Positions 3,249-38,917 of a DNA stretch of 64,000 nucleotides are shown one piece after another. The notes beneath the pieces are model-generated. The model did not search any database. It saw only the letters and a list, made by a program, of their open reading frames with translations, and was not told the origin of the DNA. Position 1 is the first letter of the stretch. Each line of letters opens with the position of its first letter. Both the position numbers and the translations under genes were made by a program. Source of the DNA: Candidatus Calidihabitans tengchongensis (GTDB lineage Bacteria > Sysuimicrobiota > Sysuimicrobiia > Sysuimicrobiales > Kaftiobacteriaceae); the NCBI GenBank assembly GCA_031459615.1, contig JAVKIE010000013.1:226-64225 (forward strand), written 5' to 3'.

Positions 3249-5215
3249 GCGGCCTCCTCCAGGAGGTAGCGGGCCCGACCCCGCACAGCCTCGGCCCGCT
3301 CGGGCCAGAAGGCGATCACGGTGCCGACGGTGAGGACGGCGCCCCCCACCCACATCCACATCATCAGGGGGTTGATGAGCACCTGCAGGTGTGCCGTGCC
3401 GTCCTCGTCCACGCCCGCCAGGATCACGTACAGGTCGTCCAGCCAGGTGGAGCGGATGGCCACCTCGGTGAGGGGCTGGTCTTCGTGGCCCCGGTGGATG
3501 TTGCGCTGGGGCGTCAGCACGCCGGCCGGTCGGCCGGCGTTGAAGACCGTCAGGGTCGCCGCCGTGACCAGGGCCGACGGGGTGGGGTAGGTGTCCGCCC
3601 CTTCGTAGCGCAGCGTGTACCGGCCCACCGCGACCGACTGGCCCGGATGCAGGACGGCATCGGTGCTGGTGGCGAAGGCGGCGCCGGCCATCCCGGCAAA
3701 CAGCAGCACCATCCCCAGGTGCACCACGTAGCCCCCGTAGCGCCGGTGATTGCGGGCCACCAGCCGCCCCAGGGCGACCGGGTATGACTCGCCACGCCGG
3801 CGGCGGACCATCGCCGCCCGGTGCACGTCGAGCGCAATGGCCCCGGTGACGAAGGCGCACAGGGCAAAGGTCAGGACCGCCACCGGGTGGCGCACGCCCC
3901 CCGCGGCCAGGGCGGCCGCCGTCCCGGCGCCGAGGACGGCGGGGAGCAGGAAAGCCCGACGGAGGCTGGCCACGGTCGTCTTCCGCCACGCCAGCAGGGG
4001 ACACACACCCATCAGCAGCAGCAGGGCCAGCCCGATGGGGACGTTGACCCGGGTGAAGAAGGGGGCCCCCACGCTGACCTTCACGCCCCGCACCGCCTCC
4101 GACAGCAGGGGAAACGTGGTGCCCAGGAAGACCGAGAAGGCGGCTCCCACCAGGATCAGGTTGTTGAACAGGAAACTGCTTTCGCGGGACACGACCGAGT
4201 CCAGCTCGCCCGCCCCCCGCAGTGCGGGCCACCGCCAGGCCAGCAGGCCCAGGGACACCGTCAGAACCACCGCCAGGAATGCGGTGAACGGCACGCCCAA
4301 CCCGCTGGGGCCGAAGGAATGCACCGAGGACAGCACCCCGCTGCGCGTCAGGAACGTGCCGAAGATGGAGAGGGCGAAGGTGAGGATGATCAGGACCAGG
4401 TTCCAGACCTTGAGCATGTCGCGCTTTTCCTGCACCATCACCGAGTGCAGGAAGGCCGTGGCCGTCAGCCAGGGCATCAGGCCCGCATTCTCCACCGGAT
4501 CCCACGCCCAGTACCCGCCCCACCCCAGCTCCACGTACGCCCACTGCATGCCGAACAGCAGGCCCCAGGACAGGAAAAACCAGGCCAGCAGCGTCCACCG
4601 CCGCGTGGCCCGAATCCACTCGTCGTCCAGGCGCCCGGTGGCCATGGCGGCGATGGCGAAGGCGAAGGGGACGGTGAAGCCGACATAGCCCAGATACTGG
4701 GTCGGTGGGTGGAAGAACATCCCCGGGTTCTGCAGCAGAGGGTTCAGGCCGGCGCCGTCGGGCGGGGCGGCCGGCAGCCGCTGGAAGGGGCTGCTCACGG
4801 CGGCCAGCAGCAGGGTGAAGAAGGCCGACGTGCCCAGGACGGTGGCCACCACGTAAGGGAGCAGCTCGCGCCGGGCGGCGTGCCTCCAGACCACCAGCGA
4901 GCCGAACAGGGTGAGGATCCACGCCCAGAACAGCAGGCTGCCGGCCTGGCCCGCCCACCACGCCGACACCGTGTACCAGACCCCCAGATCCCGGCTGGTG
5001 TAGCTGGCGACGTAGGCGTTGCCGAAGTCTCGGGTCAGCAGGGCGTACAGCAGCACCGCCGACGCCACCGACAGCAGCAGGAAGGTGGCGTACACGGCGT
5101 GGCGGGCGCTGGCCACCAGCTGGGGCCGCCGCCGCGCCCCCAGCAGGGCCGCCGCGACCCCGTACACGGAGGTGGCGACGGCCATGTCCACGGCCAGAGA
5201 ACCGATCTCGCTCAT
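3245..5215 (-). CDS. ccmF: heme lyase CcmF
   Basis: WAGQAGSLL, HPP, WGGYWAWDPVEN, SVHSF motifs; start at MSEIGS. Confidence 0.97.
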   Translation of the reverse strand: MSEIGSLAVDMAVATSVYGVAAALLGARRRPQLVASARHAVYATFLLLSVASAVLLYALLTRDFGNAYVASYTSRDLGVWYTVSAWWAGQAGSLLFWAWILTLFGSLVVWRHAARRELLPYVVATVLGTSAFFTLLLAAVSSPFQRLPAAPPDGAGLNPLLQNPGMFFHPPTQYLGYVGFTVPFAFAIAAMATGRLDDEWIRATRRWTLLAWFFLSWGLLFGMQWAYVELGWGGYWAWDPVENAGLMPWLTATAFLHSVMVQEKRDMLKVWNLVLIILTFALSIFGTFLTRSGVLSSVHSFGPSGLGVPFTAFLAVVLTVSLGLLAWRWPALRGAGELDSVVSRESSFLFNNLILVGAAFSVFLGTTFPLLSEAVRGVKVSVGAPFFTRVNVPIGLALLLLMGVCPLLAWRKTTVASLRRAFLLPAVLGAGTAAALAAGGVRHPVAVLTFALCAFVTGAIALDVHRAAMVRRRRGESYPVALGRLVARNHRRYGGYVVHLGMVLLFAGMAGAAFATSTDAVLHPGQSVAVGRYTLRYEGADTYPTPSALVTAATLTVFNAGRPAGVLTPQRNIHRGHEDQPLTEVAIRSTWLDDLYVILAGVDEDGTAHLQVLINPLMMWMWVGGAVLTVGTVIAFWPERAEAVRGRARYLLEEAA

Positions 5216-5753: not shown

Positions 5754-6499
5754 CGGTCCTCCCCCCTCACCCCTGGCCGGAGCGTGTTCGCCGTGGTATC
5801 GCCCGCCGCCAGCCGGTCGGCGATCGCCATCTGCTCCCGGCGCAGGCTGAACAGAATGGCGTACAGAACCGTGAAGGCCGCGACGTTGACCAGCAGCGCC
5901 TGGAGCATGGCCGGATGCAGACCCGACCCGAAGCCCTCGGCCCGCATCACCACCGGCAGCGGGTGGAGGGACCGCCACCACACCACCGAGAGGTGGATGA
6001 GGGGGATGTCGAGAAAGCCGACGATCCCCAGCACGGCGGCGAACCGGGCCGGCTGGCTGCCCGCTCCCCCGTAGGCCCGCACCATGAGGGACACCACATA
6101 GATCAACCAGAGCATGAAGGTCGTCGTCAGGCGCGGGTCCCAGCTCCACCACGTTCCCCACGCGTACCGGCCCCACACCATGCCGGTGGCGATGGCCAGG
6201 GTGGTGAAGACCACGCCCACCTCGGTGCTGGCGTGGGCGGTCAGATCATAGGCCCTGCGGCGGGTCCACAGGAATCCCACGCTGGCCACGAACACGACGC
6301 CAAACGCCAGAAACCCCACCCACGCCGACGGAACGTGGACGTAGAAGATCCGCTGGGCCGCCCGCATGGTGCGCTCCTCGGGCGCGTAGAGCAGGGCCAT
6401 GAACTGGCCGGCCACCAGAAGGGCGGCTGTCGCGGCGATGGCCGCCGCGCGCCAGTCTCTCGGCATGGCGGTGGGGCGCATCGGACTGTTCGCGCTCAC
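5750..6499 (-). CDS. ccmC: heme exporter CcmC
   Basis: RIFYVHVPSAW, WGTWWSWDPRLT WWD motif, WWRSLHP; start approximate. Confidence 0.95.
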   Translation of the reverse strand: MSANSPMRPTAMPRDWRAAAIAATAALLVAGQFMALLYAPEERTMRAAQRIFYVHVPSAWVGFLAFGVVFVASVGFLWTRRRAYDLTAHASTEVGVVFTTLAIATGMVWGRYAWGTWWSWDPRLTTTFMLWLIYVVSLMVRAYGGAGSQPARFAAVLGIVGFLDIPLIHLSVVWWRSLHPLPVVMRAEGFGSGLHPAMLQALLVNVAAFTVLYAILFSLRREQMAIADRLAAGDTTANTLRPGVRGEDR

Positions 6500-8570: not shown

Positions 8571-9623
8571 ATGGGGGTGGGGGAGTGGCTCCAGGAGCGC
8601 ACCCGCGTCCGGGAGGCGGTGGCGTTCCTGCAGCGCAAGGAGGTGCCGGTCCACCGATTCTCCCTGGCGTACTACACCGGAGGCATCACCCTGTTCTTCT
8701 TCCTGCTTCAGGTTGCCACCGGGTTGTTGCTGCTCCTGTACTACCGCCCGGCCGCGGACTCGGCCTACGAAAGCGTGCGGCTCATCACCTCCCGGGTCCA
8801 GTTCGGCTGGCTGGTGCGCGGCATCCACGCCTGGTCGGCCAACCTGATGATCCTGGCGGCCTGGGTGCATCTGGCGGCGACCTTCTTCACCAGGGCGTAT
8901 CGCAGGCCGCGGGAGCTCACGTGGATCTCGGGGGTGCTCCTGCTGGTCATCACCCTGGCGTTCGCCTTCACCGGCTACCTGCTGCCGTGGAACACTCTGG
9001 CCTTCTTCGCCACCCGGGTGGGGACCGAGATCGTCGGGGACCTGCCGGGGGTGGGCCGGGCGCTGATGGTGCTGCTCCGGGGCGGTGAGGACGTGACCGA
9101 GGCCACCCTCAGCCGGTTCTTCGGCATTCACGTGGCGATCCTCCCGGCGCTGACCACCATCCTCCTGGGGATCCACCTGACACTGGTCCAGATTCACGGA
9201 ATGAGCCGGCCCATTTCCGTTTCACCCCGGGGGGCGGAGCCCTTCTACCCGCACTTCCTCCTGCGGGATCTGATGGTATGGGTGGTCCTGCTGGGAGTGG
9301 TCGCCGCGCTGGCCACGCTGGCGCCCTGGCCGCTGGGCGAGAAGGCTGACCCCCTCGCGCCGGCGCCGGCAGGCATCCGGCCGGAGTGGTACTTCCTGTT
9401 CATGTACCAGACCCTGCGCATCCTGCCGAGCCGCATCCTTGGCGTGGAGGGCGAAACCGCAGGCGTGCTGGCGTTTGCCGCGGGCGCGGTGATAGTGCTG
9501 CTGGTGCCGTTCCTGGACGTGTGGGCCCAGCGGGAGCGCACGCATCCGGCGATGACGTGGGTGGGCGCGGCAACCCTGGCTTTTGTGGTGCTCATGACGC
9601 TCCTGGCGTGGTGGGAACGCTGA
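8571..9623 (+). CDS. petB: cytochrome b (b6 + subunit IV-like, fused)
   Basis: LQVATG, GIHAWSAN...VH, TGYLLPW, second His pair in GIHVAIL...GIH, RPEWY Qo motif. Confidence 0.93.
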   Translation: MGVGEWLQERTRVREAVAFLQRKEVPVHRFSLAYYTGGITLFFFLLQVATGLLLLLYYRPAADSAYESVRLITSRVQFGWLVRGIHAWSANLMILAAWVHLAATFFTRAYRRPRELTWISGVLLLVITLAFAFTGYLLPWNTLAFFATRVGTEIVGDLPGVGRALMVLLRGGEDVTEATLSRFFGIHVAILPALTTILLGIHLTLVQIHGMSRPISVSPRGAEPFYPHFLLRDLMVWVVLLGVVAALATLAPWPLGEKADPLAPAPAGIRPEWYFLFMYQTLRILPSRILGVEGETAGVLAFAAGAVIVLLVPFLDVWAQRERTHPAMTWVGAATLAFVVLMTLLAWWER

Positions 9624-14819: not shown

Positions 14820-16127
14820 ATGGAGGTGCGCGCGCGCCAGATCCAGGTCCCGTACGGGGTGGGGCGCTTCTCACCGGCCACCCTGGTCCTCGTCGCCCTC
14901 CTGCTGGCGGTGATCGCCAGAGGCCTGTACGCCCTCTACGTCCAGCTCACGGAAGGATTGGTGGTCACCGGCCTGCGCGACGTCGGAACCATGGGCGGGT
15001 CCACCTGGGGGCTGTACATTGCCTTTGACGTCTACTTCGTCGGCGTCAGCTTCGCCGGGATCAGCACCGCCGCCCTGGTGCGGCTGCTGAACCTGCAGCA
15101 CCTGCGGGCAGTCTCGCGGATGGCGGAGGTCCTGACCATCGTCTCTCTGGTCCTGGCGGCGTTCAGCGTGCTGCCGGACCTGGGCCAGCCCCTGCGGGGG
15201 ATTGTGCACCTGCTGAAGTACGCCCGGCCCCAGTCGCCCTTCTTCGGGACGTTCACCATGGTCATCGCCGGCTACCTCTTTGCCAGCCTGGTGTACTTCT
15301 TCCTGGACGGGCGCCGGGACGCCGCCCTGCTGGCCCGGATCCCCGGGCGGCTGCAGTGGTTCTACCGCCTGTGGGCGGCCGGCTACCGGGGGACGCCGGC
15401 AGAACGGGAGCGGCACCACCGGGTCAGCTTCTGGCTGTCGCTGGCCATCCTCCCCATGCTGGTGATCGCCCACTCCACCCTGGGGTTCGTCTTCGGCCTG
15501 CAGGTGGGTCGACCGGGGTGGTTCAGCGCCCTGCAGGCGCCGGCGTTCGTCATCCTGGCCGGGGTGTCGGGCGTGGGGCTGCTGATCGTGGTGGCGGCCG
15601 TGGCCCGCCGAACCCTCGGGGCGCAGGATCGGCTGACTCCGGACGTGTTCCGCTGGCTGGGAAACTTCCTGATGGTGCTCACGGCGGCCTATATGTACTT
15701 CATGCTGGTGGACTGGCTGACGGCCACCTACGCCGCCCCCAGCCACGAGCAGCGGGTCTCCCGGGCCATCTTCGTGGGCCCCTATGCGCGCGTCTACTGG
15801 GTGTCGGTGGCCTCCCTCCTGGCCGCGTTCTACCTGTTGCTGCGCCAGTTTTTGTCGGGCCAGAGCCGCATCGCGGTTCCGGTGGTCTCGGGAGTGCTGG
15901 TGAACATCGCCGCGGTGGGCAAGCGGTTCCTCATCGTGGTGCCCTCCCAGACTCACGGCGCCATGCTGCCGTATCCGCCCGGGGTATACGCGCCCTCGTG
16001 GGTCGAATACAGTATCCTGGGAGGCCTGGTGGCTCTGGGCGCGTTGATGTACGTCCTGTTCGCCAAGACGTTCCCCCTGATCGATCTGCCCGACGACTTT
16101 CGCGTGGAAGGGGTTCGACGACGGTGA
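14820..16127 (+). CDS. NrfD/PsrC-family quinol-interacting membrane subunit
   Basis: TWGLYIAFDVYFVG, DLGQPLR, QSP, YAPSWVE; about 10 TMs. Confidence 0.92.
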   Translation: MEVRARQIQVPYGVGRFSPATLVLVALLLAVIARGLYALYVQLTEGLVVTGLRDVGTMGGSTWGLYIAFDVYFVGVSFAGISTAALVRLLNLQHLRAVSRMAEVLTIVSLVLAAFSVLPDLGQPLRGIVHLLKYARPQSPFFGTFTMVIAGYLFASLVYFFLDGRRDAALLARIPGRLQWFYRLWAAGYRGTPAERERHHRVSFWLSLAILPMLVIAHSTLGFVFGLQVGRPGWFSALQAPAFVILAGVSGVGLLIVVAAVARRTLGAQDRLTPDVFRWLGNFLMVLTAAYMYFMLVDWLTATYAAPSHEQRVSRAIFVGPYARVYWVSVASLLAAFYLLLRQFLSGQSRIAVPVVSGVLVNIAAVGKRFLIVVPSQTHGAMLPYPPGVYAPSWVEYSILGGLVALGALMYVLFAKTFPLIDLPDDFRVEGVRRR

Positions 16128-29828: not shown

Positions 29829-30515
29829 ATGACGGCTGTCCCGTCCGCCAACCGCCCGCGACCCCGCGCCCGTGTTCTCCGGGCGGTGGCTGCCAAAGAC
29901 GACATCCTCCGGCGCCTGCCGTCCGCCGGCGGCCGTACCGTCCGCGAACTGGCCACGGCGGTCGGGCTGTCGCCGTCCGCCCTGCGCCAGCACCTGGCGT
30001 CCCTGGAACGGGAGGGCCTGGTCGAGAAGATGGCCGTCCGGGGCCGCCCCGGACGGCCGGCGTTCGCCTACCGCCGCGCCGAACCCTCCGCGGGCCCGGC
30101 CGATCCGTCCAGATTTCTGGGCGTGCTGTTGCGCGTGGTGGAGTCCCTGGGGCCGGACCGCGCCGCGGAGGTCGTGGACGGCGTGGTGGGGGCGCTGGAG
30201 AGCGAGTACCGGGCCATCGAGCAGATCCCCGACCCCGGCGCCCGCATCCGCGCGGCCGTTTCCGTGCTCTTCGACGGCGAGGGGCGCTCGCAGGTCCGCA
30301 TCGCCACCGACGGCTACGAGGTGAGCCTGCGGCGCTGTCCGTTGCTGCCGGCGGCCCGGGAGTCCCCGGCGTGCTGTGAGATCGCCCGGCGCCTGCTGGC
30401 CCGGCTGTCCCGCGCCGAGGTGGAACAGCGGGAGTCCCTGCTGCGGGGCGATCCCCGCTGCCTGTTCCTCCTGCGGGTGCCGGCCGCGGGCGGCCGGATG
30501 GCGAAGGCGGGGTGA
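29829..30515 (+). CDS. SufR-like HTH regulator with C-terminal Cys cluster
   Basis: TVRELA..LSPSALRQHLASLE, GRP, RCPL..CCE..GDPRC. Confidence 0.8.
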   Translation: MTAVPSANRPRPRARVLRAVAAKDDILRRLPSAGGRTVRELATAVGLSPSALRQHLASLEREGLVEKMAVRGRPGRPAFAYRRAEPSAGPADPSRFLGVLLRVVESLGPDRAAEVVDGVVGALESEYRAIEQIPDPGARIRAAVSVLFDGEGRSQVRIATDGYEVSLRRCPLLPAARESPACCEIARRLLARLSRAEVEQRESLLRGDPRCLFLLRVPAAGGRMAKAG

Positions 30516-31246
30516 GGCCGGTGGCGCGGCACGCGGGCGCGGTGGCCGTGCTGTGGGGCGTCCTGACCGTCCTGGGCCTGCTGGCGGCGGGACGCGCCCA
30601 CCTGCTGCCGGTGGCGGCCGCCCGGGAGGCCCGCATCATCGACGACGCCTTCCGCTTTCTCCTCCTGCTGGCGGTCCCGGTGTTCACGTTCGTGCTGGCC
30701 GCCCTCGCGTACTCGGTGGTGGCGTTCCGCGGCCGCGGGGAACCTCCCGACGACGGCCCCCCGCTGCGGGGGCGCTCGGCGGTGCCGTGGATCTGGCTGG
30801 CGGTCACGGGCGGCCTGGCCGTCTACGTCATCTTCAACCCCGGCCTGCGGGGTCTGGCCGAGCTGCGCGCCGATCGCCATGCGGACCTGGTGGTGCGGGT
30901 GGAGGGTTCCCGGTGGGTGTGGCGGTTCGTCTATCCCGACGCGGGCGTCACCAGCCGGGAGCTGGTCCTGCCGGTGGGCCGGCGAGTGCGGTTCGAGGTG
31001 ACTGCCGCCGACGTGGTCCACTCGTTCTGGATCCCGGCGTTCCGGGTGAAGGTGGACGCGGTGCCCGGCATGGTGACGACGGTGTACGTGACGCCCACCC
31101 GGGTCGGCGACCGGGCCGCCGACGTGAACTTCCGGGTCCAGTGCGCCGAGCTGTGCGGCCTGGGCCACCACCTGATGGCCTCGCCGGTCCGGGTGGTGGA
31201 CCCGGAGGCGTTTCGCGAGTGGGCGGAGAGCGCCCGGTCCCCGTAG
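30512..31246 (+). CDS. coxB: cytochrome c oxidase subunit II (CuA, no fused cytochrome c)
   Basis: DVVHSFWIP, QCAELCGLGHHLM. Confidence 0.95.
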   Translation: MRPVARHAGAVAVLWGVLTVLGLLAAGRAHLLPVAAAREARIIDDAFRFLLLLAVPVFTFVLAALAYSVVAFRGRGEPPDDGPPLRGRSAVPWIWLAVTGGLAVYVIFNPGLRGLAELRADRHADLVVRVEGSRWVWRFVYPDAGVTSRELVLPVGRRVRFEVTAADVVHSFWIPAFRVKVDAVPGMVTTVYVTPTRVGDRAADVNFRVQCAELCGLGHHLMASPVRVVDPEAFREWAESARSP

Positions 31247-31292
31247 GCGGCGGAGGCGGGGGCAGGGGGCACGAGGTGAGCGGGCTGTGCGC

Positions 31293-33122
31293 ATGATCGC
31301 GCGCGGGATCGGGTGGGGGCTGGTCGGTTTCGCGCTGGGCGCCGGGGCGACGCTGGCGGCCGGGTGGGCCGTGGGGCGCCCCCCGCGGGCCGAGGTCTGG
31401 GTGACCGTCGGCTACGTGATCGGGCTGGCCGGCTGGCTGCTGGGCGTCGGTCTGTGGGAGGCCTGGGCCCGGGGGTGGGTGGGGCTGCCGGTGCGCCACG
31501 AGCCCGACCACACGTGGCGGCGCTACGTCCGGTTCACCACCGACCACAAGGTGATCGGGGTGCAGTACCTGGTCACCTTCGTGGCGCTGTTCGTGGTGGC
31601 GGGCGCGATGGCGCTGGTGATGCGGGTGGAGCTGGCCGCCCCCGGGCCGACGGTGATGGGAGCCGCCGCCTACACCCACCTGATGAGCCTGCACGGCATC
31701 ATCATGATCGCCGTGGCGGTGGCCACCCTCCTGGGCGGCTTCGGCAACTACCTGGTGCCGCTGATGATCGGCGCCGAGGACATGGCCTTCCCCCGGCTCA
31801 ACGCCCTCAGTTACTGGCTGGTGCCGCCGGTGGCGGTGCTGCTGGTGGCCACGCCCTTGGCCGGCGGATTCGACACCGGGTGGACGGCCTACCCGCCCCT
31901 CAGCGTGGTCAACGCCAGCGGCCAGGTCCTGTTCAACCTGGCGGTGATCACCTTCGGGCTGTCCTCCATCCTGGGCGGGATCAATTTCCTGGCCACCATC
32001 GTGGGGCTGCGGGCTCCCGGCATGTCCTGGCGGCGGCTGCCGATCTTCGTGTGGTCGGTGTTCGCCGCGTCGCTGATCAGCGTCACCGCCACCCAGTACC
32101 TGGCGGCGGCGCTGCTGATGGTCCTGCTGGACCGGGAGGCGGGGATGGCGTTCTTCGCCCCGGCCCGGGGAGGCATGCCCCTCCTGTACCAGCACATCTT
32201 CTGGTTCTACTCCCACCCGGCGGTCTACATCATGATCCTGCCCGCCTTCGGCGTCGCCCTGGAGGTGCTGACCCACTTCTCCCGCAAGCCCCTGTACGCC
32301 TACCCCTGGGTGGTGGGAGGGTTCCTGGGCATCGTGGGGCTGAGCTTCGTGGTGTGGGCGCACCACCTCTACACCAGCGGCATGCGGGAGTCGCTGCTGG
32401 GCCCCTTCATGGCCACCACCGAGCTCATCTCCATCCCCACGGGGCTCGTGTTCCTGGCCGCCCTGGGGACCCTGTGGATGGGCCGGCTGTGGCTGCGCAC
32501 CCCGATGCTCTTCGCCCTGGGGTTCCTGTTCAACTTCCTGATCGGGGGCGTGACCGGCATCTTCAACGCCGACGTCCCCACCGATCTGCACCTGCAGGAC
32601 ACCTACTTCGTGGTCGGCCACTTCCACTACACCATCGTGGGCGGGATGATCTTCGCCCTCTTCAGCGGCCTGTACTACTGGTTCCCCAAGGTGACCGGGC
32701 GGATGTATGACGAGCGGCTGGGCCGGGTGCACTTCGGGTGGATGTTCCTGGCCTACAACGCCACGTTCCTGCCCATGTTCTGGGCGGGCGTGCACGGGAT
32801 GAACCGGCGCATCGCCGACTACCCGGCGTCCCTGGCCGGGGTGAACCTGTGGATTTCGGTCATGGCGGGCCTGCTGGGGGCCAGCATCCTGGTGTTCCTG
32901 TTCAACGTGGTGCGCAGCTGGCTTCGCGGGCCTCGGGCCGCGGCCAACCCCTGGGGGGCGCGGACGCTGGAGTGGCAGGTGCCGTCGCCTCCCCCCGAAG
33001 GCAACTTCCCCCACCCGCCCCAGGTGGTGGGGGATCCCTACGGCTACGGGGTGCCGGGGGCCGTGCACGCTGTGATGGCCGCCGCCGGCGGATCCGGGGA
33101 GGGGAGGGCCCATGGACTCTGA
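31293..33122 (+). CDS. coxA: heme-copper oxidase subunit I, A2-type
   Basis: TTDHKVIG, DMAFPRLN, WFYSHPAVY, VWAHH, VVGHFHY, GMNRR. Confidence 0.97.
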   Translation: MIARGIGWGLVGFALGAGATLAAGWAVGRPPRAEVWVTVGYVIGLAGWLLGVGLWEAWARGWVGLPVRHEPDHTWRRYVRFTTDHKVIGVQYLVTFVALFVVAGAMALVMRVELAAPGPTVMGAAAYTHLMSLHGIIMIAVAVATLLGGFGNYLVPLMIGAEDMAFPRLNALSYWLVPPVAVLLVATPLAGGFDTGWTAYPPLSVVNASGQVLFNLAVITFGLSSILGGINFLATIVGLRAPGMSWRRLPIFVWSVFAASLISVTATQYLAAALLMVLLDREAGMAFFAPARGGMPLLYQHIFWFYSHPAVYIMILPAFGVALEVLTHFSRKPLYAYPWVVGGFLGIVGLSFVVWAHHLYTSGMRESLLGPFMATTELISIPTGLVFLAALGTLWMGRLWLRTPMLFALGFLFNFLIGGVTGIFNADVPTDLHLQDTYFVVGHFHYTIVGGMIFALFSGLYYWFPKVTGRMYDERLGRVHFGWMFLAYNATFLPMFWAGVHGMNRRIADYPASLAGVNLWISVMAGLLGASILVFLFNVVRSWLRGPRAAANPWGARTLEWQVPSPPPEGNFPHPPQVVGDPYGYGVPGAVHAVMAAAGGSGEGRAHGL

Positions 33123-33315
33123 ACTGGCCGCGCGCCTGCGGGTGGGCACGCGGGTGCTGGGCGCCCTGCTGGCGCTCACCGTCCTGGAGGTGCCCGTGGC
33201 GTTCCGGGTGCCGCATCCGCTGCCGTGGCTGGTGCTGCTGAACCTGGCCGACGCCGCGCTCATCGTGTGGTACTTCATGCACGTCGCCGATCTGTGGCGC
33301 CCCGGGGAGGAGTGA
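33112..33315 (+). CDS. oxidase subunit IV-like small membrane protein
   Basis: LLALTVLEV...LIVWYFMHV. Confidence 0.8.
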   Translation: MDSELAARLRVGTRVLGALLALTVLEVPVAFRVPHPLPWLVLLNLADAALIVWYFMHVADLWRPGEE

Positions 33316-33317
33316 CC

Positions 33318-33884
33318 GTGGCCACCCGCGTCGCCGCCCGCCCCCGCTACAGCCGGCTGTATCTCCGGCGGCTGGGCCTGTGGCTGTTCCTGCTGTCCGA
33401 GGGGTTCCTGTTTTCCGCCCTGCTGGCCGCCCGCTACTACCTGCTGGGCCTGGAGCGGCCCGAGGGCCTCAACCAGCCCCTGGGGCTGGCCATCACCGCC
33501 GTGCTGCTGGCCAGCAGCCTCACCGCCTACCGCGCCGAAGCGGCCATCGCCCGGGGGCACCGGTCCCTGTTCGCGCGCAACACCCTGGCCACGGTCGGCC
33601 TGGGCCTGCTGTTCCTGGCAGGGGTGGGGGTGGAGTGGGCGCAGGCCTTTGCCCACTTTCCCCCCGGCCGGCGGGTGGGGACCATCTTCTTCACCCTGAC
33701 GGGCATGCACGCCCTGCACGTCGCCAGCGGGGTCGCGTTGCTGGCTGGCGTGTACCTGCACGGGCGCCGGGGTCGGTACGGCCCCCACGACTACTGGCCG
33801 GTGGAGGGGGCCGTCAAGTACTGGCACTTCGTGGACGTGGTGTGGGTGTTCATCTACCCCACTTTGTACCTGGTCACCGGCTGA
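33318..33884 (+). CDS. coxC: cytochrome c oxidase subunit III (short form)
   Basis: GLWLFLLSE, TLTGMHALHV, YWHFVDVVW. Confidence 0.93.
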   Translation: MATRVAARPRYSRLYLRRLGLWLFLLSEGFLFSALLAARYYLLGLERPEGLNQPLGLAITAVLLASSLTAYRAEAAIARGHRSLFARNTLATVGLGLLFLAGVGVEWAQAFAHFPPGRRVGTIFFTLTGMHALHVASGVALLAGVYLHGRRGRYGPHDYWPVEGAVKYWHFVDVVWVFIYPTLYLVTG

Positions 33885-34057: not shown

Positions 34058-34513
34058 ATGGCGGGTCGCACCGACGGGATCGCCTACTTCGCCCTCGTGG
34101 TGGCAGTCGTCGCCCTGGCCACCAGCCTGCTGGCCTACGGCCGGAGTCCCCGGCTGGAGGGGGCTGCGGCGCCGCGTCCGGCCGCCACCCTGCCGCTGTC
34201 CATGGTGGTGGCCACGTTCACCGGCCAGGGCATGGTGGCCCACCGCTGGTACCCCACCATGCTGGTGGCGCGGGTGGGAGACACCGTCGACCTGGCCGTG
34301 GCGAACCCCGACGCCTTTGCCCACCAGCTGGAGATCACCGGCTACGGTCTGCGGACCCGGCGGCTGGCTCCCGGCGCCAGCGACGACCTGCGGTTCGTGG
34401 CCGACCGGCCCGGGGTGTTCGTGTACCGGTGCGCCCTGCCCCACAATCCCGCGACCCGGGACTGCACGCCCGACCACGAGCAGATGCGCGGCTACCTGAT
34501 CGTCACCGAGTGA
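34058..34513 (+). CDS. membrane-anchored cupredoxin 1
   Basis: N-terminal TM, GDTV.L, AHQL, PGVFVYRCALPHNPATRDCTPDHEQM. Confidence 0.85.
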   Translation: MAGRTDGIAYFALVVAVVALATSLLAYGRSPRLEGAAAPRPAATLPLSMVVATFTGQGMVAHRWYPTMLVARVGDTVDLAVANPDAFAHQLEITGYGLRTRRLAPGASDDLRFVADRPGVFVYRCALPHNPATRDCTPDHEQMRGYLIVTE

Positions 34514-34518
34514 CGGAT

Positions 34519-34977
34519 ATGGAGGGGGCGCGGTCGGTGGTGGCGGGGGTCTCCCTGGCGATCTCCCTGGTCGCCCTGGGAATCAGCGCCCTGACCCTGC
34601 TGGCGTCCCCGCCGGCGGGCGGCTCCCCGCCGGCGCGCGTGGACCTGGAGCTGCTGATCACCGGGCGGGGGGCCATCGGCGGGCCGGCCGAAAGCCACCT
34701 GTTCGATCCCCAGCTGCTGGTCGTGCGGCGGGGCGACACGGTGCGGCTGCGGGTCCTCAACCTGTCCCACTTCCGCCACGGCCTGGAGTTTGCCGGGCTG
34801 GGCGTGCGCACCGGCGCCCTGCACGGGGGGGCGGCCGAGGTCGTGGAGTTCGCGGCCGACCGGCCCGGCATCTTCGAGTATCGCTGTTACCTGCCCCACG
34901 ATCCGGCCACCGGGACCTGCGCCCCGGATCACGACCGGATGGTGGGGCACCTGGTGGTGGTGGAAGGGCGACGCTGA
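34519..34977 (+). CDS. membrane-anchored cupredoxin 2
   Basis: N-terminal TM, GDTVRL, RHGL, PGIFEYRCYLPHDPATGTCAPDHDRM. Confidence 0.85.
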   Translation: MEGARSVVAGVSLAISLVALGISALTLLASPPAGGSPPARVDLELLITGRGAIGGPAESHLFDPQLLVVRRGDTVRLRVLNLSHFRHGLEFAGLGVRTGALHGGAAEVVEFAADRPGIFEYRCYLPHDPATGTCAPDHDRMVGHLVVVEGRR

Positions 34978-35019
34978 CGCGATCGCAGTCCACGACGAGA
35001 CCGATGGAGGTGAGGAGGG

Positions 35020-35484
35020 ATGCGGATGAGGACGGTCGTGATCCTGGGGATCGCTCTGGCCCTGGCGGCCATCGGCCCCGCGGCGGGAGCCCCCAAGGCC
35101 CAGAAGGTCACCGTCGTGCTCAACGAGATGAGCTTCACGCCCTCTCGGGTGACGGTGACCGCGGGCACGCCGGTGGAGCTGGTCCTGGTGAACCGCGGCA
35201 AGCAGAAGCACGAGTTCATGGTGTACAGCCTGCCCCGGGCGGGGCTGGCCGGTGAAGAGCTGGAGGAGTGGGCCAAGGAGAACACCTACTTCAAGGGCGT
35301 CGAGGTGACCGTGGAGACTGCAGGGGTGGAAATTGAGGCGGAGGCCCTGATGGAGGTGGAGCTGGCGCCGGGGCGGTCGGTGACGCTGGAGTTCACCCCG
35401 CAGCGCAAGGGGACGTTCGAGATCGGGTGCCACGTGGAAGGCCACTACGAGGCCGGCATGAAGGGCACCTTTGTCGTCCGATAG
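35020..35484 (+). CDS. exported type-1 cupredoxin 3
   Basis: Signal peptide, KHEF, GCHVEGHYEAGM. Confidence 0.9.
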   Translation: MRMRTVVILGIALALAAIGPAAGAPKAQKVTVVLNEMSFTPSRVTVTAGTPVELVLVNRGKQKHEFMVYSLPRAGLAGEELEEWAKENTYFKGVEVTVETAGVEIEAEALMEVELAPGRSVTLEFTPQRKGTFEIGCHVEGHYEAGMKGTFVVR

Positions 35485-35494
35485 GAGGCGCGCC

Positions 35495-35938
35495 GTGAAC
35501 GGCCGGGGGCTGGCGCTGTCGGCGGTGATCGTCGCGGCCGTCGTGGCCGGGGCGTCCGGGTACGTGGTGCTGCGGTCCGCGCGCCCTCCTGTCTCGGCGG
35601 CACCCCCGGTCGTGCCCGAAGTGCGCCAGTTCGACCTGTGGCTGCACGTCCTGGAGGCGGGGGAGACCGCCGTGCGGCACTGGGTCCCGCCGGTTGTGGT
35701 GGTGAATGCGGGGGACACGGTCATCCTGCGGCTCCACAACGGGGATCCGGAGGCCGCCCACGGCTTTGTGGTGGCGGCCCTGAACGTGGTGGTCCCCCCG
35801 ATCCCTCCGGGGGAAACGGCGACGGTGCGGTTTGTGGCGCAGCGGCCCGGCATCTACCACTACGGCTGCGCCGCCGCCGGGTGCGCGCCGGACCACGCCG
35901 GCCAGATCGGTCAGCTGGTGGTGCTGGGAGGCCGGTAG
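35495..35938 (+). CDS. membrane-anchored cupredoxin 4
   Basis: N-terminal TM, GDTVILRL, AHGF, YGCAAAGCAPDHAGQ. Confidence 0.82.
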   Translation: MNGRGLALSAVIVAAVVAGASGYVVLRSARPPVSAAPPVVPEVRQFDLWLHVLEAGETAVRHWVPPVVVVNAGDTVILRLHNGDPEAAHGFVVAALNVVVPPIPPGETATVRFVAQRPGIYHYGCAAAGCAPDHAGQIGQLVVLGGR

Positions 35939-36871
35939 GTGCGCCTGACGCGACGCTCGTTCCTCACGTCCCTCGCGGCGGTGGCGGCCGCCCTGTCGGG
36001 CTCCCGGGCGGTGGCCCCGCTGGCCCGGTGGCGCCGCGGCGTGAAGGGCGCGGTGCCCGCGCTGGTGGCCCGGCCGGAGGGGGTCCACAGCCTGGCACAC
36101 CTGGAGGCTGTGCCCGCAGGCGGAGGCGTGGCCCTGGCCTTCGCCGCGGAGCCACCGCGGGCGGAGCCGGCGGCGGCCTCGGGACGCCGGTGGGTGATGG
36201 TGATCGACCTGGCGCGCTGCGACGGGTGCCGGGAGTGCACCCGCGCCTGCCAGGCGATGCACTTCCTCCCCGGCGGCCAGGAGTGGATCCGGGTGTACGA
36301 GATGCGCGATCACGAGCTGGGCGCGCCCTACTGGCTGCCCCGCCCGTGCATGCAGTGCGACAATCCGCCGTGCGTGAAGGTGTGCCCCGTGTCGGCCACC
36401 TGGAAGCGGGAGGACGGGATCGTCATGCAGGACACCTCCCGCTGCATCGGCTGCCGGTTCTGCATGGCCGCCTGCCCGTACCAGGCCCGCAGCTTCAACT
36501 GGGTGGACCCGGAGGTCCCCGGCATGCCCGACGAGCCCTACGCGATGGAGTGGAACCGGGTGCACCGCCGCGGGACCACGGAAAAGTGCATCTTCTGCCC
36601 GGCCCTGCTCGCCGAGGGCCGGCTGCCGGCGTGCGCGGCCGCGTGCCCCATGGGCGCCATCTACTTCGGCGACCAGGGAGAGGACGCCGTCACCAACTCC
36701 CAGGGGGAGACCGTGCGCCTGTCGGAGCTGGTGGCCGCCAACGCCGGCTACCGCCTGCTGGAGGAGCTGGGGACCGAGCCCCGGGTCTACTACCTGCCGC
36801 CCCGGCGCCCCCTGTATCCGCCTCCGCCCCCCGCCACCGAGCCGGCCTCGGCCGGGGAGGCCCGACGATGA
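35939..36871 (+). CDS. Tat-exported four-cluster [4Fe-4S] protein (NrfC/DsrO-like)
   Basis: LTRRSFL, WVMVIDLARCDGC, CMQCDNPPC, CIGCRFC, KCIFC. Confidence 0.93.
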   Translation: MRLTRRSFLTSLAAVAAALSGSRAVAPLARWRRGVKGAVPALVARPEGVHSLAHLEAVPAGGGVALAFAAEPPRAEPAAASGRRWVMVIDLARCDGCRECTRACQAMHFLPGGQEWIRVYEMRDHELGAPYWLPRPCMQCDNPPCVKVCPVSATWKREDGIVMQDTSRCIGCRFCMAACPYQARSFNWVDPEVPGMPDEPYAMEWNRVHRRGTTEKCIFCPALLAEGRLPACAAACPMGAIYFGDQGEDAVTNSQGETVRLSELVAANAGYRLLEELGTEPRVYYLPPRRPLYPPPPPATEPASAGEARR

Positions 36872-38418
36872 TGCGCCGCCGGGATCTCTTCTCGCCCCGG
36901 GAGCTCCGCGTGCTGGCCTCCCTGCACGGGGGCGGGCCGGGCTTTTACGCCCTCATGGGCGTTCTGGTCGGGGTGGCGCTCTGGGGGCTCATCGCCTACG
37001 GCGTCCAGCTGCGCTACGGCCTGGGCGTGACCGGGCTGCGGGACAACGTCATGTGGGGCGTCTACATCACCAACTTCGTGTTCTTCATCGGGGTCAGCCA
37101 CGTCGGCGCGCTGATGTCGGCCATCCTGCGCCTCACCGGAGCCGAGTGGCGGCGGCCGATCACCCGCATGGCCGAGGCCATCACCTTCGCGTCGCTGCTC
37201 ATGGGGGGCCTGATGCCCCTGGTGGATATGGGCCGGCCGGACCGGCTCCTCAACCTGGTGCTGCACGGGCGGCTGCAGTCGCCCATCCTGTGGGACATCC
37301 TGTCCATCACCACCTACCTCACCGGCAGCACGCTGTTCCTGTACGTGCCCATGATCCCCGACATCGCCCTGCTCCGGGACCGGTTCGCGGCGGGGCCGGC
37401 GTGGCGGCGGAGGCTGTACACCGCCCTGGCCCTGGGGTGGCGCGGCACCGAGGTCCAGCGCCGCCACCTGGAGGCGGCCATGGGCATCCTGGCCGTCCTC
37501 ATCATCCCCATCGCGGTGTCGGTCCACACGGTGGTGTCCTGGATCATGGCCATGACCCTGCGGGCGGGGTGGAACAGCACCATCTTCGGTCCGTACTTCG
37601 TCTCCGGGGCGCTGTTCAGCGGGGCGGCGGCCGTGGTCACCGCCATGGCCGCCTTCCGGTGGGCCTACCGCCTGGAGGAGTACATCACCGAAGACCACTT
37701 CCGCCGGATGGGCTACCTGGTGATCGCCCTGGGCCTGATCTACGCCTACTTCACCTTCAACGAGTACTGGGTCCCGGCGTTCAAGATGGCCTCCCATGAG
37801 CGCGGCTACCTGGCGGCGGTGCTGAGCGGGCCGTTTGCCCGGCTGTTCTGGTTCACCCAGGTGGGCGGGCTGCTGCTCCCGGTGCTGCTGCTGACCCTGC
37901 CCCGGGCGTCCCTGGTCCCCCGCCTGGCCCGGGTTCCCCTGCTTCAGCCCCGGCCGGCCCTGGCGGCGGCGGCGGCGTCGGGGGTGCTGGCGATCGCGGC
38001 CTACGCTCCGCCGTCGCCGGTGGCGGCGACGCTGGACGCCGGTGTGCTGCGGGCGGTTGCCGCCGGGACGCTCGCGGTGGCATCGCTGTGGGTGCTGGTG
38101 GCCCTGCTGCCCCTCTGCCGCGCCCGCCCGATCGCCACGGCGACTGTGGCGTCCGTGCTGGTCAACGTGGGCGCGTGGTGGAAGCGGTACGTGATCATCG
38201 TCCCCACGCTCCAGTCGCCGTTCCTGCCGATCCAGCGGGCGCCCCAGGGGTGGGGGGTGTACACGCCCACCTGGGTGGAGTGGTCGATTACCTTCGGAGC
38301 CGTGGCCGGCTTCCTGCTGATCTACATCGTGTTCAGCAAGCTGTTCCCCATCGTCTCCCTGTGGGAGACCCGGGAGACCGAGCAGGGCGGGGAGGTGGCC
38401 CATGCGCTGGCCCGTTAG
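36868..38418 (+). CDS. NrfD-family membrane subunit (ActC/DsrP-like)
   Basis: WGVYITNFVFFIG, RMAE, DMGRPDR, QSPILWD, SVHTVVSW, YTPTWVE. Confidence 0.93.
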   Translation: MMRRRDLFSPRELRVLASLHGGGPGFYALMGVLVGVALWGLIAYGVQLRYGLGVTGLRDNVMWGVYITNFVFFIGVSHVGALMSAILRLTGAEWRRPITRMAEAITFASLLMGGLMPLVDMGRPDRLLNLVLHGRLQSPILWDILSITTYLTGSTLFLYVPMIPDIALLRDRFAAGPAWRRRLYTALALGWRGTEVQRRHLEAAMGILAVLIIPIAVSVHTVVSWIMAMTLRAGWNSTIFGPYFVSGALFSGAAAVVTAMAAFRWAYRLEEYITEDHFRRMGYLVIALGLIYAYFTFNEYWVPAFKMASHERGYLAAVLSGPFARLFWFTQVGGLLLPVLLLTLPRASLVPRLARVPLLQPRPALAAAAASGVLAIAAYAPPSPVAATLDAGVLRAVAAGTLAVASLWVLVALLPLCRARPIATATVASVLVNVGAWWKRYVIIVPTLQSPFLPIQRAPQGWGVYTPTWVEWSITFGAVAGFLLIYIVFSKLFPIVSLWETRETEQGGEVAHALAR

Positions 38419-38917
38419 TGCGGCGGCCGCGGTGGTGGGGATCCTCCTCCTGTCCTCGGGGGCGGCCGCCGGCGTCGCCCTCTCCCTGGAGTCGGGGCCC
38501 GGAGGGCGGCCGCAGGTCGCGGCGGTGGTGACGGACGATTCCGGGGAGCCCGTGGAAGGCGCCACCGTGGCCTTCCGGGCCCGCACCGCCTTCGGCTGGC
38601 TTCCCCTGGGAGAGGTGACCACCGACGCGTCCGGGAGAGCGGTCCTGGCGCTGCCGTCCGGGCGCCCGTACCCGGAGATCGAGGCGGAGGTGTCCGAGCC
38701 TCCGCAGCGGGCGGCCCTGACCCTCGCGGAGCGCCCCGCGTGGCGCCCCGCGGTCCGGCCCGGCCGGCAGGTCCTGCAGGCCCTCAGCCCCCAGCCGGGC
38801 CTCATCAGCCCGTACCCCGTCCCGCCCCTGGCCCTGCTGGGGGCCCTCCTGGGCGGCATCTGGGCGACGTACGGCTACATCGTCTTTCTGCTCACCCGGA
38901 TCGCCACCGGCCGCTGA
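38402..38917 (+). CDS. Ig-like exported domain with C-terminal TM anchor
   Basis: Signal peptide, GEPVEGATVAF...TTDASG, C-terminal TM. Confidence 0.7.
   Translation: MRWPVSAAAAVVGILLLSSGAAAGVALSLESGPGGRPQVAAVVTDDSGEPVEGATVAFRARTAFGWLPLGEVTTDASGRAVLALPSGRPYPEIEAEVSEPPQRAALTLAERPAWRPAVRPGRQVLQALSPQPGLISPYPVPPLALLGALLGGIWATYGYIVFLLTRIATGR

Follow-up and report, generated by a model that had tools for sequence, protein, structure and literature searches.

Which metal centre is encoded by two adjacent cupredoxin genes whose motif resembles that of the binuclear CuA site, with its two cysteines set ten residues apart, and what might the encoded proteins do? The genes, cupA and cupB, are located on the plus strand of a 64,000-nucleotide stretch (the window) of contig JAVKIE010000013.1 from Candidatus Calidihabitans tengchongensis. 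cupA (34058..34513; ATG start at 34058, stop codon at 34511-34513, GGAGG six bases 5′ of the start) codes for a 151-aa protein in which an N-terminal membrane helix precedes a cupredoxin domain. cupB (34519..34977; ATG start at 34519, stop codon at 34975-34977) begins 6 bases past the cupA stop codon and codes for a 152-aa paralogue, likewise with an N-terminal helix and a cupredoxin domain, which is 46% identical to cupA. With moderate confidence, we read cupA and cupB as electron carriers of the CuA type that act outside the cytoplasm in a quinol-linked respiratory module free of haem.

The original prediction for this locus described two paralogous cupredoxins containing C-ALPHNPATRD-C-TPD-H-EQ-M (cupA) and C-YLPHDPATGT-C-APD-H-DR-M (cupB), each with an upstream His, and the translation reproduced both strings exactly. 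The full motif is H89...C125-X10-C136-X3-H140-X2-M143 in cupA, with ligand codons at 34322, 34430, 34463, 34475 and 34484, respectively, and H87...C123-X10-C134-X3-H138-X2-M141 in cupB, with ligand codons at 34777, 34885, 34918, 34930 and 34939. A loose regular expression for this motif, applied to 19,513 six-frame open reading frame segments of the genome, returned 15 matches, which were divided between three cup paralogues, five canonical CuA proteins and seven junk sequences. Because 7 of the 15 matches were junk, the bare motif can occur by chance; the cupA and cupB copies are not chance occurrences, as they lie within conserved cupredoxin genes.

Searching 5.8 billion proteins for cupA-type homologues gave 205 matches, 120 of which were listed and examined. 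C-X10-C-X3-H-X2-x was kept in all 120 listed homologues, with Met as the last residue in 119 and Thr in one; the upstream His at −36 was likewise kept in 120/120, and "TPD" preceded the motif His in 119/120. The cupB homologues kept the motif in 113/113 cases, with the axial position occupied by Met (110), Ile (2) or Gln (1). In an alignment of 62 expanded-loop representatives sharing 23−65% identity with cupA, the invariant columns were G74, H89, G119, C125, C136 and H140, and D139 was nearly invariant; His, Cys, Cys and His were the only invariant residues capable of serving as ligands. The original prediction had singled out the conservation of both Cys residues and of a His in the "LPH" tripeptide of the insertion, proposed as an extra ligand shared by the two paralogues. 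Both Cys residues stood up to this comparison, the second being present in 120/120 listed cupA homologues, 113/113 cupB homologues and 62/62 representatives, and this invariance answered the objection, raised with the prediction itself, that the second Cys might be missing from homologues. The LPH His did not hold: this position was His in 72, Tyr in 47 and Pro in one of the 120 listed cupA homologues, Tyr in 89 and His in 24 of the 113 cupB homologues, and, farther away in the family, any of His, Tyr, Phe, Trp and Pro. Since the position was not conserved, the LPH His is no general ligand.

An invariant pair of Cys residues might also reflect a structural disulfide, Cys125-Cys136, stapling the inserted loop and leaving His, His and Met either to coordinate a copper without thiolate ligands or to bind no metal. 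In favour of this, cupA and cupB are exposed on the oxidising membrane side, the loop closed off by the two Cys residues varies in length (9−16 residues), as in a classic disulfide arrangement, and the insert contains a small hairpin according to the DSSP assignment of the cupA model. However, the first Cys (C1) is homologous to the essential Cys ligand of type-1 and CuA sites, and giving it up while both His residues stay invariant would be unparsimonious. A TlpA-like thioredoxin gene next to the cupredoxin gene gave a further, weak hint of reduced Cys residues, coming from two Anaerolineaceae loci of one lineage. A disulfide thus appeared very improbable to us.

The cup family is widespread and unstudied. 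A family profile run against 1.84 billion representative sequences gave 4,767 matches with E ≤ 1e-3, of which 275 reached E ≤ 1e-10. In the top-scoring 150 of these 4,767, the loop took the form C-Xn-C-X3-H-X2-[M/Q/I/L/V] with n = 3, 4 or 9−16, the motif instances being most numerous at n = 10 (42), n = 3 (37), n = 4 (14, mostly with Gln) and n = 12 (10), with a few at n = 9, 11, 13, 15 or 16. In the same 150 proteins, n = 3 instances often belonged to tandem two- or three-domain proteins, and 47 proteins had no two-Cys motif, most of these being type-1-like. Homologues came from metagenome-assembled genomes labelled Armatimonadetes or CSP1-3, from Caldarchaeales and from Symbiobacteriaceae, under generic names such as "cupredoxin domain-containing protein", "plastocyanin", "oxidase subunit 2" or "hypothetical". 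Several relatives (P0133, P0152, P0176, P0192 and others; 250−690 aa) consisted of two or three tandem cupredoxin domains, each with a canonical C-X3-C-X3-H-X2-M; judged by their motifs, they look like multi-CuA "wires" and are seemingly uncharacterised. In the Caldarchaeales-type homologues, the membrane helix was joined to the cupredoxin domain by a collagen-like GPxGPxG linker.

An AlphaFold2 model of cupA built from the family alignment (predicted local distance difference test score, pLDDT, 92.1) consisted of a helix (residues 2−29), a linker and a beta sandwich, and the modelled fold is certainly that of a cupredoxin. The structural matches (Foldseek, VIA) included nitrosocyanin (Z 14.0), the extra domain of NirK (Z 13.0), bo3 subunit II (Z 12.3), auracyanin (Z 11.9) and the Thermus CuA domain (Z 11.6−11.9; 11.6 for 2cua), and the NosZ CuA domain (1fwx) matched the model at Z 12.3 with a root-mean-square deviation of 1.7 over 95 aligned residues. 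As cupredoxins of all colours matched within about 2 Z, the fold alone cannot name the metal site. A score of 0.05 was obtained for a predicted cupA-cupB complex, against a mark of 0.32, and it counts neither for nor against a heterodimer.

Sequence comparisons connected the family more specifically to CuA domains. The model for the NosZ C-terminus, TIGR04246, matched cupA (E 3e-7), cupB (E 4.7e-5) and the third paralogue of the operon, cupD (E 2.7e-11), and the family profile matched NosZ (1fwx) in the PDB at E 5.7e-7 over profile positions 69−149, reaching the C-terminus. Alignment of cupD with the Thermus CuA-domain chains paired the first Cys with the first, the second (C2) with the second and His with His, with one extra residue and with Gln in place of Met. 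When cupA, cupB and cupD were aligned by MAFFT with the four CuA subunits and NosZ of the same genome, all five ligand columns coincided and the only gap fell between C1 and C2; hhalign against CoxB of the window gave the same register. The CuA ligand set and order, with seven residues inserted between the Cys residues, had been proposed from the motif, and these homologous domains and aligned columns bore the proposal out. PF00127, the type-1 family, did not match cupA or cupB and did match the neighbouring gene at 35020-35484. Many close homologues of cupA and cupB carry a precomputed PF13473 assignment, and cupD scored 15.2 bits against PF00116 (COX2), below the cut-off of 22.

Compared with the CuA domains of Thermus ba3 subunit II (2cua/1ehk) and NosZ (1fwx), the cup proteins share the cupredoxin fold, the ligand order His, Cys, Cys, His, Met, an identical C2-X3-H-X2-M spacing and an aligned aromatic H/R-x-W/F motif on the first strand; like ba3 subunit II, they consist of a one-helix anchor and a domain of about 110 aa. 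They differ from CuA domains in the spacing of the Cys residues, which is C-X10-C in cupA and cupB and C-X4-C in cupD instead of the C-X3-C found in all four CuA subunits and NosZ of this genome, in the near-invariant Asp before the loop His, in an axial residue that varies among M, Q, I, L and V across the family, and in being stand-alone proteins and no oxidase or reductase subunits. A search of the PDB found no solved structure with an expanded loop. A quick maximum-likelihood tree of 120 domains was computed from 112 columns after the insert had been taken out; its root is arbitrary and many of its forks are unresolved. Of the 78 rows with n ≥ 4, the tree placed 77 on one side of a branch among n = 3 rows (Shimodaira-Hasegawa-like approximate likelihood ratio test, SH-aLRT, 91), the exception being P0210 with n = 15. 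cupA and cupB grouped as sisters with a support of 86, and the n = 4/Gln type to which cupD belongs formed a clade of 12 with a support of 95.

Both Cys residues were taken as copper ligands because of the homology to CuA domains, the retained C2-X3-H-X2-M spacing and the fact that His, Cys, Cys and His are the sole invariant residues with ligand potential across loops of 4−16 residues. The cupredoxin domain would derive from the CuA type of oxidase subunit II and N2O reductase, and His89, Cys125, Cys136, His140 and Met143 of cupA would most likely hold a CuA-like copper-thiolate centre, with the extra inter-Cys residues probably forming a surface hairpin. A site unlike classical CuA could result from the insertion, from the conserved Asp that precedes His and from the variability of the axial residue.

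The same comparisons bear on a mononuclear centre, in which cupA and cupB would still be electron carriers and would bind a single copper, either type-1-like (ligands Cys125, His89, His140 and Met143; Cys136 would then be regulatory or lie in the second sphere) or as a Cys2His2 "red/other" site. Like type-1 cupredoxins and nitrosocyanin, the cup proteins combine the cupredoxin fold with an upstream ligand position and a C1 at a strand end, exactly where the type-1 Cys is located; the best PDB matches by sequence were NirK type-1 domains (E 1.5e-15), the best structural Z was that of nitrosocyanin, and axial variation among M, Q, I, L and V is also familiar from type-1 families. In contrast, type-1 proteins and nitrosocyanin have one Cys and a short C-X2-4-H loop, whereas cupA and cupB have a second Cys, at the CuA spacing C-X3-H-X2-M, and 14 residues between C1 and His. 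A pure type-1 site leaves the invariance of this second Cys unexplained, and the n = 3 relatives carry the canonical CuA motif. We therefore consider a mononuclear copper site unlikely.

To place the CuA-type reading in its genetic setting, we describe the operon. Directly 5′ of cupA lie the genes coxB, coxA, coxD and coxC of an aa3-type oxidase (30512..33884, plus strand), whose CoxB has a canonical CuA motif, C-X3-C-X3-H-X2-M. The genes 3′ of cupB are all on the plus strand and begin with a type-1 cupredoxin (35020..35484; PF13473 60.5 bits, PF00127 26.9 bits) with a signal peptide and a single Cys in C-X4-H-X4-M. It is followed by cupD (35471..35938), the third membrane-anchored paralogue, with C133-X4-C138-X3-H142-X2-Q145, located directly 5′ of a gene for an NrfC/DsrO-type 4Fe-4S poly-ferredoxin (35939..36871) with a twin-arginine leader and a Fer4_11 (PF13247) match above the cut-off. 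Neither the type-1 cupredoxin nor cupD figured in the original prediction. Next come a 516-aa NrfD-type integral membrane subunit (36868..38418; PF03916 90.7 bits, above the cut-off), presumed to provide the quinol/quinone site, and a small immunoglobulin-like (Ig-like), CarboxypepD_reg-like protein (38402..38917), whose gene follows the NrfD gene in related loci too. A poly-ferredoxin with a twin-arginine leader encoded together with an NrfD-family membrane protein makes up an NrfCD-type module. DsrO and DsrP were the nearest NCBIfam models for the pair and both scored below the cut-off, the iron-sulfur protein reaching 189.8 bits against 200 for DsrO. No haem subunit, multihaem or monohaem, and no molybdopterin-like subunit was found among the genes of the operon.

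An identity of the iron-sulfur/NrfD pair as "NosGH-like" was considered and dropped. NapH is not known to be NrfD-type, and for this reason the pair was named NrfC/NrfD (DsrO/DsrP-like). NosGH is likened to NapGH in a passage of one report (PMC3475470).

The leader of the iron-sulfur protein and the signal peptide of the type-1 cupredoxin place these candidate partners of cupA and cupB outside the cytoplasm, and CoxB is extracytoplasmic as well. One N-terminal helix would anchor cupA and cupB on the outside of the cytoplasmic membrane, where they probably act as one-electron carriers. Together with cupD and the type-1 cupredoxin, they may wire the quinol-oxidising NrfC/NrfD module to terminal enzymes with a copper entry site, namely the adjacent aa3 oxidase here and a nos/nar-type cluster in other genera; electrons would run from quinol towards these enzymes, and the cup proteins would take the role that c-type haems have in alternative complex III.

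The arrangement was followed through a phylum survey of 94 genomes in 31 genera (one of the genomes, G017, is flagged unpublished and bears no specific claim). A cup match at E ≤ 1e-10 was present in 28/94 genomes (15/31 genera). At 25 of 25 cupA-type places, in 21 genomes, a cupB-type gene lay within 61 bases downstream, and from this we conclude that the pair is old and has been kept together. The order cupA-cupB, type-1 cupredoxin, cupD, iron-sulfur protein, NrfD, Ig-like protein recurred, whole or in part, at 6 of 12 fetched loci, usually adjoining a histidine kinase and a response regulator; the oxidase operon directly adjoined these genes in no genus but that of the window, and one further locus of the 12 had it in the vicinity. 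An orthologue of the window's NrfD was found in 23/94 genomes, and 19 of these 23 also had a cup match, with weak, cupD-type matches directly beside the NrfD gene. At locus L024 (5724-18309), from another genus, the pair was flanked at one end by NarH-, NarJ- and EB_dh-type genes and at the other by a nos cluster with radical-SAM, Rrf2 and nosZ-nosL-nosD-nosF genes. In L024-type loci, the cupB protein had Gln as the axial residue.

Outside the phylum, an alignment of the archaeal sub-family (9 sequences) searched against one genome per species gave 10 loci, from Caldarchaeales, Nitrososphaerota/Thaumarchaeota, Anaerolineaceae (Chloroflexota) and Thermoplasmata. In 9 of the 10, a C-X10-C cupredoxin adjoined orthologues of the iron-sulfur protein (40−63% identical) and of NrfD (34−57%), and four of the nine also carried the Ig-like protein. 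At one archaeal locus, the cupredoxin-FeS-NrfD (FeS, iron-sulfur protein) set was self-contained, and neither oxidase nor nos genes lay in its surroundings. At L033, a gene (3351-4073) about 2.7 kb 5′ of the archaeal set encodes a regulator of the AsnC type that bears a metal-binding TRASH domain and may exert copper-responsive control. The two Anaerolineaceae loci mentioned above had the TlpA-like thioredoxin gene (AhpC/TSA, Redoxin) directly 3′ of the C-X10-C cupredoxin gene (L037 7429-7971, L038 7466-7996); confined to these two loci, it is a hint and no pattern. At L037, the iron-sulfur gene is in addition preceded by a cytochrome c gene.

Gene neighbourhoods also speak to a role in assembly, in which the cup proteins would be copper chaperones loading the CuA sites of oxidase and NosZ, a cupredoxin-fold counterpart of Sco and PCuAC. 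The cup genes adjoin those of CuA enzymes (coxB here, nosZ in another genus), the proteins have a membrane anchor and a Cys2His ligand set reminiscent of Sco, and the genome, in which Sco and PCuAC were not found, still encodes four canonical CuA subunits and NosZ. On the other hand, the best-conserved neighbours in Bacteria and Archaea alike were the genes of the iron-sulfur/NrfD redox module and not those of CuA enzymes, and one archaeal module stands apart from any oxidase or nos gene. Neither did the phylum show a complementary pattern, as Sco was present in 16/21 cupA-bearing genomes and in 46/73 others. cupA and cupB themselves gave no match to Sco or PCuAC families among the Pfam and NCBIfam results, and their fold is that of a cupredoxin. 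A chaperone role consequently struck us as improbable. The narrower proposal that cup proteins replace Sco was rejected, since the two distributions were not complementary in the 94 phylum genomes.

Several points weigh against electron carriers of the CuA type. Natural CuA sites are not known to have any loop other than C-X3-C, and an insertion of 7−13 residues could break the Cu2S2 core; an axial residue varying among M, Q, I, L and V is more typical of type-1 sites. The top two structural scores went to the mononuclear red-copper nitrosocyanin and to the type-1 extra domain of NirK. Among the profile comparisons, the hhalign match to CoxB was weak taken alone (probability 3.5%, E 0.012), Pfam COX2 (PF00116) did not match cupA or cupB, and Cupredoxin_1 (PF13473) gave 19.3 bits for cupA and 24.4 bits for cupB, under its cut-off of 27. 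As for the module, 8 of the 21 cupA-bearing genomes, among them the genome of L024, had no orthologue of the window's NrfD, and the pair is therefore not dependent on the NrfD module. Sco (PF02630) and PCuAC (PF04314) were not found in this 97%-complete genome, and the RNA-library contigs described below are no proof of transcription. Finally, the genome encodes cytochrome b complexes, cytochrome c maturation proteins and two further NrfD proteins; because of these cytochrome b and c maturation genes, the cup module can be only one branch of a flexible chain. The presence of the same genes led us to reject the idea of an organism free of haem c.

The closest parallel to the proposed CuA-type module is found in alternative complex III with auracyanin and in NrfCD/DsrOP modules, which likewise pair a periplasmic poly-ferredoxin with an NrfD subunit and are encoded together with a cupredoxin electron acceptor, beside an aa3 oxidase; alternative complex III reduces auracyanin. 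Unlike that complex, the operon of the window has neither a molybdopterin-like domain nor any multihaem or monohaem subunit (the Anaerolineaceae locus with a cytochrome c gene differs from it in this respect), and its cup proteins are two-Cys, membrane-anchored and encoded inside the operon. PmoD is reportedly another stand-alone, membrane-anchored cupredoxin with an atypical CuA-like site outside oxidases, contributed by one Cys per monomer across a dimer, unlike cupA and cupB, in which all ligands lie within one chain.

More broadly, and tentatively, the expanded-loop two-Cys cupredoxins may represent a new, CuA-like variant, found in nature, of the copper-thiolate electron-transfer centre, with an inter-Cys loop of 4 to 16 residues and a tunable axial residue, serving as the wires of a haem-free, copper-based quinol:acceptor oxidoreductase in Bacteria and Archaea that feeds oxidases and N2O reductase; we hold this possible, short of probable. 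Engineered loops in CuA and type-1 sites are under active study. The cup family keeps all CuA ligands while its loop (4 or 9−16 residues) and axial residue (M/Q/I/L/V) vary, and therefore offers a ready-made series for studying nuclearity, colour and potential. The cupredoxin-FeS-NrfD set, which spans hot-spring bacteria and Caldarchaeales/Nitrososphaerota archaea, suggests a respiratory complex that oxidises quinol and is wired by copper in place of haem c. Such a module may deliver electrons to N2O reductase as well as to aa3 oxidases, and would then bear on N2O consumption in these habitats. The available portions of the literature searched (including PMC8239418, PMC8076601, PMC11604079, PMC11962464 and PMC9038741; supplements and subscription journals fell outside its scope) contained no description of the expanded inter-Cys loop or of the cupredoxin-NrfCD module. 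Stand-alone CuA-type cupredoxins with an expanded inter-Cys loop belong to a conserved, apparently undescribed respiratory gene set.

DNA of the stretch was present in hot-spring metagenomes. Among the matches listed, contigs of one RNA library covered 34777-35113, 35253-35638 and 35661-36148, and those of a second library covered 35216-35523 and 36634-36835, all with 0−1 mismatch, giving a weak hint that the operon is expressed. None of the listed contig pieces fell within cupA (34058-34513), an absence that carries no weight. The 64-kb window is a respiratory gene island: it also contains genes for cytochrome c assembly, for a cytochrome b and for a second member of the NrfD family, at about 4340-4957, 5963-6445, 8658-9191 and 15000-15953.

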